A stretch of DNA of 22,910 nt from a virus (Duplodnaviria; Heunggongvirae; Uroviricota; Caudoviricetes), in the IMG/VR virus record IMGVR_UViG_2713896903_000002. One strand, written 5' to 3'. A program made the position numbers and the translations under genes. Below the pieces are notes generated by a model. It was not told the DNA's origin and searched no databases. It worked only from the letters and a program-made list of their open reading frames with translations. This document shows, one piece after another, positions 185-10,975 of the stretch; positions within the stretch are counted from its first letter, which is position 1, and each line of letters begins with the position of its first letter.

Positions 185-397
185 GTGAAAAAATCACAGA
201 AATCTTTTGGCGCTAAATTTGCAGTCATACGTTGTGATGATCTGTCAGTTATTGTTGAAATGGATTATTTCCCTGATACACAAAAAGCAATGATGTATCG
301 GAATGGTCGCAAGGCAATTTTTTTACCGATGAGGAATAGTGATATTATGGGAAATGATAAATTGCCAGATGAGTTGCGAGTCAGGGCATCCTGTTAG
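185..397 (+). CDS. hypothetical small protein (70 aa), GTG start
   Basis: ORF with GGAGG at 176-180 four nt upstream of GTG 185; preceded by AT-rich promoter-like DNA; no recognisable motif. Confidence 0.3.
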   Translation: MKKSQKSFGAKFAVIRCDDLSVIVEMDYFPDTQKAMMYRNGRKAIFLPMRNSDIMGNDKLPDELRVRASC

Positions 398-7590: not shown

Positions 7591-8685
7591 ATGAGCAGAC
7601 CGGACTGGGGGGCGTTGCAGCAGGAATATATTGCTGAATACACCCGCTCCGGTGTATCTCCGGTGGCGTGGTGTGAAGCAAAGGGACTGAATTACGCAAC
7701 AGCCCGTCGTTACATCAAGAAACCTCCGAAAAATGCGCAGACAGAAGTGCGCAAAACTGCGCAAAAAAGTGCGCGAAAAAAAACTGCGCAGACTGCGCAA
7801 AAGCAAAACGGAAAATCTCAGAAAAAAAAGACTGTATCCGATGCACTCCTGATTGAGGAGGACACGGAAGAAATTTCGTTCTGCCCCGATGAATTCGGTA
7901 TTTCTGACCAGCAGGCAAAATTCGCCATGTTGGTTGCTCAGGGGAAAAAGCCGACAGAGGCATACCGCCTGGCTGGTTACGAGGGGCAAGGTGCGACAGC
8001 AAACAGCAATGCCAGTCGTATGCTTAGAAATGCCAGGGTTTTTCGTGCCATCAGCTACTTTCGCAATCATTACCAGAAACGCTATACCGCAGACCTGGAT
8101 TTACTGGTGAGTCAGTTGATGGCCATCGTGCAGGCTGATCCCAATCAGCTTGCGCAATTTCGCCGTGTTAACTGTCGCTATTGCTGGGGGGAGAATCACC
8201 TCTATCAGTGGCGCGATATAGCAGAATTTGACAGGGCTGCCGCGCAGGCATCCAAAGATGGTAAACCAGAACCTGAATATGGTGGCCTCGGTTTCGTTGA
8301 TAGCGCCATACCAAATCCAGACTGTCCGAAATGCGGTGGAGAAGGTACAGGTCAGCTTTATATGGCTGATACCACTTTGCTTGATGGAAATGCGCGGCAA
8401 TTGTATGCAGGAGCAAAGCTCGGAAAATTCGGCGTTGAGATCCTGCTGGAGAATAAAGCTGCCGCCCGGCGTGAATTATTGCGTTTGCTTTCCGCTGGCG
8501 GGGCATTATGTGCAGATAAGCGACTACAGGAACTGGAAATTGAACGGCGCAGAATGGAAAACCAGAAACTGCGCAAAGAGATCGAAACGGTGGAGGGTAA
8601 TGAACATCCCCAGCCTGTGGCGATCAATATTAATGTGGTTGATGCCAGAGTGAGGAGTGATGAAGATGATCTCTCCGACGCTTAA
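7591..8685 (+). CDS. terminase small subunit (Terminase_2-type core with N-terminal HTH, K/A/Q-rich linker and C-terminal Cys4 zinc-ribbon-like segment)
   Basis: KFAMLVAQGKKPTEAYRLAGYEG...NASRMLRNARV matches the small-terminase signature as recalled; CxxC...CxxC (NCRYCWGEN / PDCPKCGGEG); sits directly upstream of TerL. Confidence 0.75.
   Translation: MSRPDWGALQQEYIAEYTRSGVSPVAWCEAKGLNYATARRYIKKPPKNAQTEVRKTAQKSARKKTAQTAQKQNGKSQKKKTVSDALLIEEDTEEISFCPDEFGISDQQAKFAMLVAQGKKPTEAYRLAGYEGQGATANSNASRMLRNARVFRAISYFRNHYQKRYTADLDLLVSQLMAIVQADPNQLAQFRRVNCRYCWGENHLYQWRDIAEFDRAAAQASKDGKPEPEYGGLGFVDSAIPNPDCPKCGGEGTGQLYMADTTLLDGNARQLYAGAKLGKFGVEILLENKAAARRELLRLLSAGGALCADKRLQELEIERRRMENQKLRKEIETVEGNEHPQPVAININVVDARVRSDEDDLSDA
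7734..7799. repeat. six copies of palindromic hexamer TGCGCA (one TGCGCG) spaced 9-15 nt apart inside terS; candidate pac / TerS-binding array
   Basis: Direct reading: TGCGCR at 7734, 7748, 7758, 7770, 7785, 7794, mostly followed by A-runs. Confidence 0.45.
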
Positions 8686-10975
8686 TGTGCCTCAGGCGCG
8701 ATTTCTTTCTATGCCTCATAAATTTAAAGCCTATGTTGCTGGTTTTGGTTGCCTGAGGGGAAGTACGCCTGTGGTTACAGAGAATGGGATTCTACCCATT
8801 CAGGAAATAACTCGACCAATGCGCGTTTTATCTTGGTCGGATGAGAATAATCGATTTGAGCTTTCGCTAAGTGGTGGTGCGTACCCAAAAGGTGTGGCGA
8901 ATCTATACCGAGTAGTGACGCAGCGAGGAGAATTTGTAGCAAGCGGACATCACCGCGTTTTTTGCGCTGACGGTAGCTATCGATCTGTGGATAGTCTGGA
9001 CGAATCGGTGAAGGTATTTGCATCTTCGCAAAACCTTCTTCTGACCAGTTTGGCCGCCGTCCCGAAATCGTTGCACGCAGGTGATCCACGTTTGAATCAA
9101 AAACTCGCAGATTACTTGGGGTGTTATGCAGATGAAGCCCGTCGATATGGTCAACAACTTCTGATGGCAGCAGATAACGCCCCAGCTTCTTTTCAGCGAT
9201 CAAACGATGTTCAAACATCATGCCTGTTCTGCGCATATATGGATGGTCAGCAGGCGCTGGAACAACGGCATATTCATCCAGATCAACAATTCGACCACCA
9301 CGAAAGCTGGGGTTCAACTCACCCTTTCTGGCGCCACGGGAGAGCCGGTTGGTGTTGTGAATTCGGAGAATATTTTGAACGTGCTTTTCTGTGCAACCAA
9401 CTTCCGCCGCGATCTCTGCCGACGTACAGTGACCATCAGCAAGAGCGAGGATTCTGTCCTTCGCACTTTCTCGAGGGGCAGGCTTCTGGCGTTGTTTCAG
9501 CGTTAACCCATAACGAGATATGCAACGATAAACATGACTACGGTCACAACCTGCCAGAGAAGCAACTTCTGAAACGGTACGTTCTGGATGTGCTAAATCA
9601 CAAATTAAATGGTCAAGAGGCGTCAAAACCAAACGCCTTAATCGAAACCTGCAACATATTGAGTGTAACACTGTTGCAGGAGGCCGAGCCATATTATGAC
9701 CTCCAGGTATTGGATAATAACTGCTACGTAACTGCTGATGGGACGATTCATCACAATAGCGGTAAAACATGGGTTGGGTGTGGTGGCATATGTAAGGGGA
9801 TTTGGGAGCATCCGGGTATCAATCAGGGATATTTCGCGCCTACATATCCACAAATTCGCGATATTTTTTATCCTACAGTTGAAGAAGTTGCTGCCGACTG
9901 GGGGCTAAATGTAAAAATTAACGAGGGAAATAAAGAAGTTCATTTTTATTACGGACGTCAGTATCGGGGAACCACTATCTGCAGATCGATGGAGAAGCCA
10001 CAAACGATCGTCGGTTTCAAAATTGGTAATGCGCTGGTGGATGAACTGGACATTTTGCCGAAGGAAAAAGCCAGAACAGCGTGGCGCAAGATAATTGCGC
10101 GTATGCGTTATAAGGTTGATGGACTTCGTAACGGTATTGACGTTACAACCACGCCGGAAGGATTCAAATTTGTCTACGAACAGTTTGTTAAAGCCGTACG
10201 TGAAAAAACAGAGCTGGCCTCACTGTATGGCCTGGTACAGGCATCTACTTTCGATAATGAAAAGAATTTGCCAGCAGATTACATTCCCTCGCTCCTTGAG
10301 TCATATCCTCCAGAGCTGATTAAAGCCTATCTTCGGGGACAGTTTACTAACCTGACAAGTGGTACTGTTTACCATCAGTTTGACCGAAAACTGAATAATT
10401 GCGAAGAAGAGGAACAGCCAGGTGAGCCGATATATATCGGGATGGATTTTAACGTCGGAAAAATGGCTGGAGTCGTTCATGTGTTACGTTTTGGGCTTCC
10501 ATGCGCAGTAACTGAAATCATTAACGCTTACGATACACCAGATATGATCCGTATTATTAAAGAGCGCTTCTGGTTATATGACGGGAATGATTATCGGAAA
10601 GTAAGGGAAATTTATATTTATCCTGATGCATCCGGGGATTCCAGAAAATCAAATAACGCAAGTGCGACGGATATTGCTCAGCTTAAACAGGCTGGTTTTA
10701 ACGTTGTTGTAAACAGTTCGAACCCGCCAGTAAAAGATCGCGTTAACTCAATGAATGCAATGTTCTGCAATGCCAATGGTGAGCGTCGCTATAAAGTTAA
10801 TGTGAAGCGTTGTCCGGTATATGCCGAATCTCTGGAGCAACAGGTCTGGGATGATAAGGGTGAGCCTGATAAAAAATCTGGTAACGATCACCCGAATGAT
10901 GCCGGAGGTTATTTTATTGTTAAGCAATTCCCTATTGTCAAACCGACCGGAAGAGTTACATCACTTCGGATTTAA
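8657..10975 (+). CDS. terminase large subunit, intein-containing precursor (probable start ATG 8666; spliced product about 433 aa)
   Basis: Walker A split as ...YVAGFG | intein | SGKTW...; Walker B-like ALVDELD; nuclease-domain motifs IYIGMDFN and DHPNDAGGY; continuous 772-codon frame. Confidence 0.85.
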   Translation: MMKMISPTLNVPQARFLSMPHKFKAYVAGFGCLRGSTPVVTENGILPIQEITRPMRVLSWSDENNRFELSLSGGAYPKGVANLYRVVTQRGEFVASGHHRVFCADGSYRSVDSLDESVKVFASSQNLLLTSLAAVPKSLHAGDPRLNQKLADYLGCYADEARRYGQQLLMAADNAPASFQRSNDVQTSCLFCAYMDGQQALEQRHIHPDQQFDHHESWGSTHPFWRHGRAGWCCEFGEYFERAFLCNQLPPRSLPTYSDHQQERGFCPSHFLEGQASGVVSALTHNEICNDKHDYGHNLPEKQLLKRYVLDVLNHKLNGQEASKPNALIETCNILSVTLLQEAEPYYDLQVLDNNCYVTADGTIHHNSGKTWVGCGGICKGIWEHPGINQGYFAPTYPQIRDIFYPTVEEVAADWGLNVKINEGNKEVHFYYGRQYRGTTICRSMEKPQTIVGFKIGNALVDELDILPKEKARTAWRKIIARMRYKVDGLRNGIDVTTTPEGFKFVYEQFVKAVREKTELASLYGLVQASTFDNEKNLPADYIPSLLESYPPELIKAYLRGQFTNLTSGTVYHQFDRKLNNCEEEEQPGEPIYIGMDFNVGKMAGVVHVLRFGLPCAVTEIINAYDTPDMIRIIKERFWLYDGNDYRKVREIYIYPDASGDSRKSNNASATDIAQLKQAGFNVVVNSSNPPVKDRVNSMNAMFCNANGERRYKVNVKRCPVYAESLEQQVWDDKGEPDKKSGNDHPNDAGGYFIVKQFPIVKPTGRVTSLRI
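8750..9757 (+). other. intein (336 codons) inserted in the TerL P-loop
   Basis: Block A CLRGSTPVVTENG starting with Cys at 8750; block B-like GEFVASGHHRVF; blocks F/G EPYYDLQVLDNNCYVTADGTIHHN ending in HN followed by Ser +1 (9758); extein halves rejoin to AGFGSGKT. Confidence 0.8.
8775..9692 (-). CDS. HNH endonuclease with N-terminal HTH-like modules, encoded antisense within the intein
   Basis: Minus-strand ORF shows HNH core FEHRLIAEKKLGRYLLPSEVVDHIDGLHLHNTPSNLRVFDSNVDHL (antisense of about 9075-9215); GGAGG + 7-nt spacer before ATG at 9690-9692; ORF is open from 9770 to 8775, so the true ends are uncertain. Confidence 0.55.
   Translation of the reverse strand: MARPPATVLHSICCRFRLRRLVLTPLDHLICDLAHPERTVSEVASLAGCDRSHVYRCISRYGLTLKQRQKPAPRESAKDRILALADGHCTSAEIAAEVGCTEKHVQNILRIHNTNRLSRGARKGELNPSFRGGRIVDLDEYAVVPAPADHPYMRRTGMMFEHRLIAEKKLGRYLLPSEVVDHIDGLHLHNTPSNLRVFDSNVDHLRATISGRRPNWSEEGFAKMQIPSPIRPDYPQIDSYRQRKKRGDVRLLQILLAASLLGIDSPHLLGTHHHLAKAQIDYSHPTKIKRALVELFPEWVESHSL

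Follow-up and report, generated by a model that had tools for sequence, protein, structure and literature searches.

Nucleotide-binding sites such as the P-loop are reportedly preferred points of intein insertion, and inteins of mycobacteriophage terminases are said to be mini-inteins or to carry in-frame endonucleases, an antisense HNH gene being reportedly unrecorded among them. Inteins in the terminase large-subunit (TerL) genes of mycobacteriophages have been described (Kelley et al. 2016, PMC5050341). The present analysis concerns an intein in the terL gene of a Caudoviricetes virus (IMG/VR record IMGVR_UViG_2713896903_000002) and an HNH endonuclease gene that lies within it on the opposite strand; the whole stretch of DNA analysed, 22,910 nucleotides, is referred to as the window. 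Both had been proposed from the letters of the window without database searches (hereafter, the original prediction), with the added claim that no intein with an antisense homing endonuclease was known. That claim proved overstated, since antisense LAGLIDADG and VSR-like cases had already been described (bioRxiv 10.1101/2025.01.02.630785).

Antisense LAGLIDADG open reading frames (ORFs) in the Synechocystis (Ssp) DnaX intein and a Chloroflexus SpoVR-like intein are attributed to Gorbalenya 1998 and Gogarten et al. 2002, as cited in that preprint. To the extent that they are described there, these inteins resemble the one in the window in having a sense splicing domain, a separate opposite-strand endonuclease ORF and a sense frame that is kept open; they differ in carrying LAGLIDADG endonucleases in the genes of cellular hosts, whereas here a helix-turn-helix (HTH) and HNH_3 protein is encoded within a phage terL gene. 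The preprint itself (Gosselin, Arsenault and Gogarten) reports actinophage inteins, some of them in TerL, with antisense LAGLIDADG, antisense VSR-like/EDxHD or frame-3 endonuclease VII-like ORFs. A separate endonuclease ORF, a sense centre without recognisable structure, continuing transfer and a proposed invasion by a free-standing endonuclease gene are common to both systems. In contrast, HNH endonucleases were reported there in frame only, while here the HNH gene is antisense, with about 70 codons over block B under dual constraint; the hosts there are actinobacteriophages and here proteobacterial and environmental phages.

Three further systems are comparable. The ShiLan element (Arsenault et al. 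2025, PMC11855218) also has an HNH homing gene that uses another reading frame of its insertion, which lies within a DNA methylase of a phage and leaves the host frame open; that HNH gene is out of frame rather than antisense, and the insertion, which has no detectable splicing domain, is thought to be retained as a loop, whereas the HNH gene of the window lies on the opposite strand and its insert has a full set of intein blocks. Fractured genes (Dassa et al. 2009, PMC2677866), one terminase locus included, likewise combine an intein with a separately translated endonuclease gene and support a model in which splicing precedes the invasion by an endonuclease. Their host gene is split, with an intein that acts in trans and an endonuclease that is GIY-YIG or VSR-like, whereas here an open sense frame keeps the intein contiguous. 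I-HmuI (PDB 1u3e), an HNH homing and nicking endonuclease of a group I intron of Bacillus phage SPO1, is encoded on the sense strand of its intron, and its match to the protein described here covers the core only. Neither an antisense HNH gene in an intein nor an overlap into the splicing domain was found in the literature searched, which left most subscription journals outside, so that this absence is not proof. An antisense HNH gene in an intein looks undescribed, the new elements being the nuclease family, the large and widespread lineage and the dual-coded splicing domain.

The terL intein and the HNH gene on its opposite strand

The limits of the intein were obtained by alignment with an intein-less allele (L101, from Escherichia coli strain 98193), the P-loop region of which is GCTGGTTTTGGCTCGGGCAAAACATGG. 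At the insertion point the intein-less gene reads ...GCT GGT TTT GGC / TCG GGC AAA ACA..., and the window reads ...GGT TTT GGT, the insert from TGC to AAT, and then AGC GGT AAA ACA.... In precursor numbering the intein extends from C32 to N367; the annotated start of the intein-less allele is an ATG equivalent to 8666. The first residue of the intein is Cys, the last three are His-His-Asn and the +1 residue is Ser; removal of the insert rebuilds GFG/SGKTW, the Walker A loop. In a 43-member intein alignment, which was used for residue invariance and for Pfam counts, C1, T10, G13, H68, D317, H334, H335 and N336 were invariant, which includes the residues that characterise a class-1 intein (Cys1, the block B His H68, and H335 with N336); the +1 residue was Ser, Thr or Cys in a set of 73 inteins. 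Pfam Intein_splicing was matched by 36 of the 43 members (best 6.8e-9) and, weakly, by the + strand protein of the window. The intein profile found the PDB mini-inteins 7cfv, 1mi8 and 4o1r; its top PDB match, a designed repeat protein, was judged to be spurious.

AlphaFold2 modelling of the sense intein gave beta structure in residues 1-93 and 297-336, with a per-residue confidence score (pLDDT) of about 67-89; values of about 80 or more were reached in these two HINT parts only. Scores fell under 50 in residues 94-105 and 143-296 and averaged 22-32 per 10-residue block between residues 151 and 290, and a helix at residues 113-142 reached 65-70 at most. The sense frame of the 43 members did not match any nuclease family in Pfam and its centre was modelled as disordered, in agreement with the predicted lack of an endonuclease motif in this part of the intein. 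The sense motif DxLGxYAxxARxYGQQLL (residues 119-138; 9104-9163, + strand), which is nearly invariant in the 43 inteins and was modelled as a helix, was considered as a functional sense element and rejected as the antisense shadow of the HNH core VVDHIDGLHLHN; it is conserved because the codons of that core are mostly two-fold degenerate, which limits variation.

On the - strand, a single open frame of 331 aa covers 8775-9770, with an internal ATG at 9690-9692, and contains the HNH core quoted in the original prediction, EHRLIAEKKLGRYLLPSEVVDHIDGLHLHNTPSNLRVFDSNVDHL. As in non-canonical inteins with an antisense ORF, the HNH gene, whether counted from 8775 to 9692 or to 9626, lies inside the intein (8750-9757), and the same was found in 73 unique inteins. 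The protein encoded in the window matched Pfam HNH_3 (PF13392) at 25.3-25.4 bits, above the gathering score of 24.8, as did 65 of 66 HNH family members (best 4.7e-10), and it matched PHROG 10730 'HNH endonuclease' at 8.1e-48. Together with hits to HTH_29, HTH_28 and HTH_23, and with the ORFs and their exact limits, these matches confirmed the prediction of an HNH gene antisense to the terL intein whose product carries both HNH and HTH modules. Relatives with a short form of the protein have the second HTH module only. Residues H162, R163, E167, D181, H182, D184, H189, N190, N194 and N201 were invariant in 66 HNH proteins down to 43% identity, so that the conserved His/Asn/His-type catalytic residues of HNH enzymes are present, in a beta-beta-alpha core.

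The AlphaFold2 model of the HNH protein (mean pLDDT 85.6) comprised two HTH modules, the beta-beta-alpha core and a helical C-terminal domain, in which G247, L255, S265, L268 and I280 were invariant among the 66 sequences. Its best match among PDB structures was I-HmuI, in the core only; the sole match of the HNH sequence profile in the PDB was a designed HTH repeat protein. For the C-terminal domain, no known fold match was found among solved structures. Its 80 residues matched 34 proteins among 1.84 billion representatives and, apart from one spurious TPR protein, these were full-length HNH family members matched in their C-terminal part or short fragments consisting of the domain; no homologue outside the HNH family was found in that collection. 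In I-HmuI the HNH domain is N-terminal and the HTH domain C-terminal, unlike the order in the antisense protein.

The start of the HNH gene differed from the one first proposed. The GGAGG motif 7 nt before ATG 9692 is present as predicted (ggaggtcataatATG, - strand) and is embedded in intein block F, being the antisense of tat gac ctc cag gta (YDLQV). As a start, ATG 9692 gave way to TTG 9626, which is conserved in the family: its alignment column holds ATG in L011-L013, L015 and L016, with AAGGAG, AGGAG or GGAG 7 nt upstream, where the window has AAGGCG (73 inteins compared). ATG 9692 and its GGAGG are confined to the clade of the window, L010 has a stop just downstream of the ATG 9692 position, and residues 1-18 of the 305-aa form were modelled as disordered. 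The HNH gene therefore likely starts at TTG 9626 and not necessarily at ATG 9692. At 53 of 73 loci, a Shine-Dalgarno-like motif was followed by a possible start codon, either ATG, GTG or TTG, that lies upstream of the N-terminal HTH module conserved in the family.

Chance is excluded as the source of the two open frames. When the HNH protein was held fixed and synonymous codons were drawn according to codon usage in the window, 9.3 stops on average appeared in the TerL frame; the reciprocal resampling, with the TerL-frame protein fixed, gave a mean of 9.4, and none of 20000 resamples was free of stops in either direction. The other four frames carry 13-18 stops. In this antisense register codon position 1 faces position 1, 2 faces 3 and 3 faces 2, and a sense stop requires an HNH codon NTT, NTC or NCT followed by a codon that begins with A; all 45 of the dipeptides in the window that carry this risk avoid the stop (Ile-Lys, for instance, is written ATA AAA, and Ser-Ile is written TCA ATA). 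The original prediction that two such frames were very unlikely to overlap by chance was therefore upheld.

The arrangement is widespread, from gamma-proteobacterial prophages to environmental phages. A collection of 5.8 billion proteins contained 424 HNH homologues at E ≤ 1e-3, and 160 IMG/VR stretches were confirmed, of which 80 were kept and joined by 17 from GTDB genomes to give 97 loci. At 96 of these 97 loci both strands were open, the strand opposite the HNH match being stop-free within an open frame of 650-1400 aa. The same antisense register was found in 73 of 74 unique inteins, where the HNH stop falls 16-52 nt within the insert. Throughout the main family the junction is G.G/C...HHN/[S/T/C]GK[S/T], in extein contexts that include VAGFG..SGKTW, MGPVG..SGKSV, VGGFG..SGKTF, GGLG..SGKSE and GAG..SGKSH. 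Among cultured phages, the element is present in seven Pectobacterium phages, Dickeya phage Setonix and Pseudoalteromonas phage PHS3.

Some single loci were unusual. L054 (IMGVR_UViG_3300034072_000605) has an intein of 224 aa and an HNH frame of 170 aa, from which the N-terminal HTH part is deleted, while its sense frame is open (666 aa); this is possibly a decaying endonuclease. The rebuilt Walker A sequence is G-S-S-K-T in L036 and G-S-T-K-T in L052, as opposed to G-S-G-K-T, which might reflect an unusual P-loop, a terminase that is inactive or an error of sequencing. Two GTDB metagenome-assembled genome (MAG) records, L091 (a Thermoplasmata archaeon) and L089 (an actinobacterium), carry the element on viral-looking contigs of 3-14 kb, for which mis-binning is likely.

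Coordinates of the terL intein, the antisense HNH gene and their parts in the window
Feature	Position	Strand	Basis or detail
TerL precursor ORF	8657..10975	+	772 aa from GTG 8657; Terminase_6N at residues 368-577, Terminase_6C at residues 594-756
Insertion junction, last N-extein codon GGT	8747..8749	+	first C-extein codons AGC GGT at 9758-9763
Class-1 intein, 336 aa (1008 nt), in the Walker A loop GFG/C...HHN/SGKTW	8750..9757	+	alignment with intein-less allele L101
N-terminal splicing domain, intein residues 1-93, blocks A and B	8750..9028	+	AlphaFold2 beta strands, pLDDT 80-86; profile matches Spl DnaX mini-intein
Sense-frame linker, intein residues 94-296	9029..9637	+	antisense read-through of the HNH gene; open, not conserved as protein
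C-terminal splicing domain, intein residues 297-336, blocks F and G, ending ...YYDLQVLDNNCYVTADGTIHHN	9638..9757	+	sense-only codon pattern; AlphaFold2 beta strands, pLDDT 67-89
HNH endonuclease ORF	8775..9692	-	305 aa from ATG 9692, stop 8775-8777, wholly within the intein
GGAGG Shine-Dalgarno, 7 nt before ATG 9692	9700..9704	-	specific to the clade of the window; embedded in sense block F (DLQ)
Family-conserved start TTG, 283-aa protein (likely start)	9624..9626	-	AAGG(CG) Shine-Dalgarno at about 9636-9639
Two HTH modules, residues 31-61 and 81-116 of the 305-aa form	9345..9602	-	Pfam HTH_29, HTH_28, HTH_23
HNH catalytic core, residues 161-205, EHR...DHIDGLHLHN..NLR.F..N..HL	9078..9212	-	HNH_3 covers residues 162-198
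HNH C-terminal helical domain, residues 228-305	8778..9011	-	antisense of the N-terminal splicing domain; block mean pLDDT 85-94 at 231-300
Dual-constraint zone, intein residues 19-78 (+) against HNH residues about 237-296 (-)	8804..8983		entropy, four-fold sites, dSN/dNS

Selection on the two strands

Entropy by codon position was calculated over the 73 unique inteins, and substitutions were counted in the manner of OLGenie in a clade of 16 sequences, where the first letter of NS, SN and NN gives the effect of a change on the sense frame and the second its effect on the antisense frame (N, non-synonymous; S, synonymous). The exteins and intein residues 1-18 and 301-336 showed a normal sense pattern, with a wobble entropy of 1.4-1.85 bits. 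From about residue 99 to residue 289 the pattern was inverted; sense position 2, which is the wobble position of the HNH frame, was saturated at 1.5-1.84 bits and positions 1 and 3 were low. Substitution counts were consistent with this inversion. In the centre (residues 99-289) dNS was 0.795, dSN 0.161 and dNN 0.151, with a non-synonymous to synonymous rate ratio (dN/dS) of 0.19 for the HNH frame and 0.94 for the sense frame, and in blocks A and F/G dNS was 0.155-0.180, dSN 0.90-0.94 and dNN 0.13, with a sense dN/dS of 0.14-0.15.

A third pattern was observed where the HNH C-terminal domain crosses the splicing domain. The overlap runs from about residue 228 to residue 305 of the HNH protein and from about residue 10 to residue 87 of the intein, block B included; in a typical non-canonical intein the secondary ORF lies between the splicing blocks, and here it does not. 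In intein residues 19-78 entropy was low at all three codon positions, with a sense wobble of 0.3-0.9 bits. At four-fold degenerate sense codons with a conserved residue, third-base entropy was 0.89 bits in the overlapped N-terminal domain compared to 1.78 elsewhere (Mann-Whitney p = 3e-7), and several such codons in the overlapped part were invariant (GGA 73/73, GCA 67/67, GCG 57/57). On the antisense side, the amino-acid entropy of the HNH C-terminal part was 0.8-1.5 bits, as low as in the catalytic region. Here dNS was 0.083, dSN 0.129 and dNN 0.062, the silent class of each frame evolving 7-10 fold more slowly than where that frame stands alone. The centre of the intein is selected as HNH only, blocks A, F and G as intein only, and residues 19-78 on both strands. 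A substitution test of this kind had been suggested in the original prediction; its outcome is a constrained antisense frame, with both frames constrained in one segment. Of the three outcomes that would have counted against the original prediction (no HNH profile hit, antisense stops in close relatives, constraint in the sense frame only), none was observed.

Relatives and mobility of the element

A related mini-intein of about 137 aa was found at the same TerL P-loop site (VGGLG/C...HHN/SGKS) in L102 (ENA metagenome contig k141_756757, 2890-4692) and also in L103 and L104. In L102 it has stops in all three antisense frames, so the openness of the antisense strand is not a side effect of HINT sequence. 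The mini-intein of L102-L104 could be either a deletion derivative or an ancestral state. More distant TerL P-loop inteins (GGRG/C...NHN/SGKS) were found in L094-L099, which are GTDB MAG contigs, with an HNH core that is 40-46% identical; the sense frame of L096 is 1418 aa. In this group the antisense HNH gene stays within the loop that normally houses an endonuclease, downstream of block B, and the overlapping C-terminal domain is lacking. Both kinds of relative fit the idea, raised in the original prediction, of a mini-intein joined by a free-standing HNH gene, and they suggest a succession from mini-intein, through loop-nested HNH, to a 3' extension over the splicing domain.

The insert was present in 1 of 5426 complete E. 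coli genomes (MEI003, 99.5% identical), and the uninterrupted terS-terL junction was found in about 785. Like a homing gene, the HNH gene resides in an element of the self-splicing type that is polymorphic for presence and absence at one precise site. When window positions 8747-8763 and 9755-9763 were compared with the closest intein-less allele, L101, there were five synonymous differences within 7 nt of the junction (GGC to GGT, TCG to AGC, GGC to GGT). This cluster is compatible with a short co-conversion tract, and may reflect either such a tract or target-site immunity; the +1 Ser codon is AGY in 48 inteins and TCN in 23, and no codon is obligatory. HNH proteins that were 56-60% identical occurred in TerL exteins that were 22-28% identical. 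Pairwise discordance of this kind was used because single-linkage clustering of the exteins at 40% identity merged nearly all of them and was uninformative.

Compared to the MEI003 copy (L001), the window had 7 mismatches over 8353-10500 and 47 within 8010-8352, in terS, many of them 3 or 6 nt apart; this segment looks like a recombination boundary or a mosaic segment. The terS gene itself (7591-8685, 364 aa) is unusually long; its product matches Terminase_2 in parts that are separated by Cys pairs (CRYCWG...CPKCGG), and the last 107 aa of the product match another family, PHROG 29114 (function unknown). The terS stop overlaps the start of terL.

A probable composite selfish element: proposed mechanism, alternatives and implications

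Taken together, these results make it highly probable that the insert is a composite selfish element, in which the intein rescues TerL and the antisense HNH protein drives the invasion of intein-less terL alleles. The terL transcript would be translated straight through the insert, and the N-terminal 93 or so and C-terminal 40 or so residues of the insert would form a class-1 HINT splicing domain. This domain is predicted to excise the 336-aa insert and to join GFG to SGKTW, which would restore the Walker A loop of the packaging ATPase. The intervening 200 or so residues are only an antisense read-through of the nuclease gene, kept free of stops but without a conserved protein sequence, and would serve as a flexible tether at the canonical position of an endonuclease domain. 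The HNH gene would be translated separately, from its own Shine-Dalgarno sequence and start within the limits of the intein, into an HTH-HTH-HNH_3 protein that is related to the phage homing endonucleases of the I-HmuI type. This protein may nick or cut an intein-less terL gene at or near the conserved P-loop codons in a co-resident phage or prophage, and recombinational repair from the intein-bearing allele would then copy intein and HNH gene together. The last 70 or so HNH codons, which are predicted to encode a helical domain particular to the family, cross the antisense of the N-terminal splicing domain, block B included. Most likely this overlap arose by 3' extension (overprinting) of an HNH gene first confined to the central loop. 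That about 200 bp (8804-8983) encode two selected domains, one HINT and rich in beta structure and the other HNH and helical, with the latter born de novo by antisense overprinting, is a reading towards which the balance of evidence tilts slightly.

Several observations weigh against this interpretation. The window copy scored 18.3 bits against Intein_splicing, under the gathering score of 35.8, and the sense-intein model was built from 7 sequences only. No sigma-70-like promoter was found on either strand of 8500-10300, where the antisense gene would be transcribed against the late operon; by eye, there was only a weak TATTAT near 9714-9719, and the sense wobble sites upstream of the HNH start did not show strong extra conservation that would mark a promoter. 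Extein and HNH identities were positively correlated (Spearman 0.59), and much of the spread may be vertical. The overlap zone has no sites that are silent in both frames and the ratio tests there were weak (0.48 and 0.74), so that the case for dual constraint rests on absolute rates compared with other regions. Sequence comparison shows the anatomy, the conservation and selection of both frames, the polymorphism for presence and absence and the spread over divergent TerL families; splicing activity, expression of the HNH protein and cleavage by it, the target site and the history of overprinting are inferred.

The promoter scan, the conflicting calls of PGAP and other gene callers and the N-terminally deleted HNH frame of L054 would also suit a plain mini-intein with a long linker, in which the HNH-like frame is an unexpressed or functionless relic or by-product. 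This is very unlikely, given the dN/dS of the HNH frame in the centre (0.19, compared to 0.94 for the sense frame), catalytic residues that are invariant in 66 proteins down to 43% identity, HNH_3 matches in 65 of 66, a frame open at 96 of 97 loci where about 9 stops would be expected, a conserved Shine-Dalgarno sequence and start, and a true mini-intein relative that has lost the antisense frame. The converse view is that a free-standing HNH gene has broken terL, with TerL made from an internal start, made in two pieces or reduced to a pseudogene, as the PGAP annotation implies; RefSeq describes the MEI003 copy as missing its N-terminus, and in the 5.8-billion-protein database there were 6 sense-frame proteins compared to 424 antisense ones. 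It is nevertheless hard to reconcile with a sense frame that is open at 96 of 97 loci across large divergence, with an insert that begins with Cys, ends with HHN before Ser, Thr or Cys and lies exactly within the Walker A loop, or with splicing blocks that match Intein_splicing in 36 of 43 members and are under a sense-only purifying pattern (dN/dS 0.14-0.15); a C-terminal fragment would also be without GxxGxGKT. We regard a broken terL as highly improbable. Antisense endonuclease genes are on record for group I introns, and an intron of group I or group II with such a gene could in principle account for the insert, but no Rfam match was found at E ≤ 1 on either strand of 8500-10000, and the sense frame runs through in frame with intein blocks at both ends; the probability of this explanation is close to negligible.

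Gp74-type cofactors go with HK97-like cos terminases, and the TerL protein here is of the Terminase_6 type. The original prediction had offered as an alternative that the HNH protein is mainly such a packaging cofactor rather than a homing enzyme; the gene does lie in the terminase region, and HNH genes beside terminase genes are reportedly common (PMC3592412). That role now appears remote, since about 785 E. coli genomes have a near-identical terS-terL junction without the insert and L101 has no HNH gene there; the gene is thus not a conserved partner of the terminase in the manner of HK97 gp74. Even where the TerL families are unrelated, it always lies within an intein and at a single site. 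The solved structure nearest in fold to its product is a homing enzyme, I-HmuI, and the product has HTH DNA-binding modules. With regard to the overlap, the low silent variation in the N-terminal splicing domain could have a cause at the level of the nucleic acid (transcript structure, an antisense RNA or a binding site), the HNH tail being unselected read-through. The register, which allows no clean dN/dS where no site is silent in both frames, and the lack of outside homologues or a known fold match for the C-terminal domain lend it some support, but it is unlikely when set against an HNH frame that is open for about 70 codons past the core in 73 unique inteins, a tail entropy as low as that of the catalytic region, five invariant tail residues (G247, L255, S265, L268 and I280), a helical domain modelled with block mean pLDDT values of 85-94, and a mini-intein relative of the same fold with antisense stops.

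Existing records divide the locus in different ways, and the element is usually mis-annotated. In MEI003, RefSeq has an HNH gene and a TerL pseudogene ('terminase large subunit domain-containing protein, incomplete, missing N-terminus'), for PHS3 an HNH gene is recorded together with a TerL that is too short, and in the Ymer record a 754-aa precursor is labelled 'hypothetical protein'. PHROG 38319 ('unknown function') matched the TerL of the window over residues 367-608, in the C-extein (model positions 28-269 of 271, 1.8e-167); judged from this model match, it appears to gather TerL predictions that were cut short. Because the HNH ORF is the one that gene callers choose, TerL is entered as a truncated gene or a pseudogene, with consequences for estimates of prophage completeness and for terminase phylogenies.

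With this element HNH, the homing nuclease most frequent in phages, joins the few endonucleases known to be encoded antisense to an intein. It also provides a large, naturally replicated data set for antisense dual coding, with sense-only, antisense-only and dually constrained zones within 1 kb, which is suited to studies of overprinting and to tests of methods for overlapping genes. Placed in a row, the mini-intein, the intein with an HNH gene in its loop only and the overlapped form resemble consecutive steps of a process in which splicing comes first and a free-standing endonuclease invades later. If the proposed history is correct, a new domain was born antisense to an old one and has been kept across many divergent phage lineages. 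Splicing element and nuclease would then be locked together, since a point mutation that decays one harms the other, and this could slow the loss of the endonuclease in the homing cycle; the timing of nuclease expression could also be set by transcription of the HNH gene and terL towards each other.

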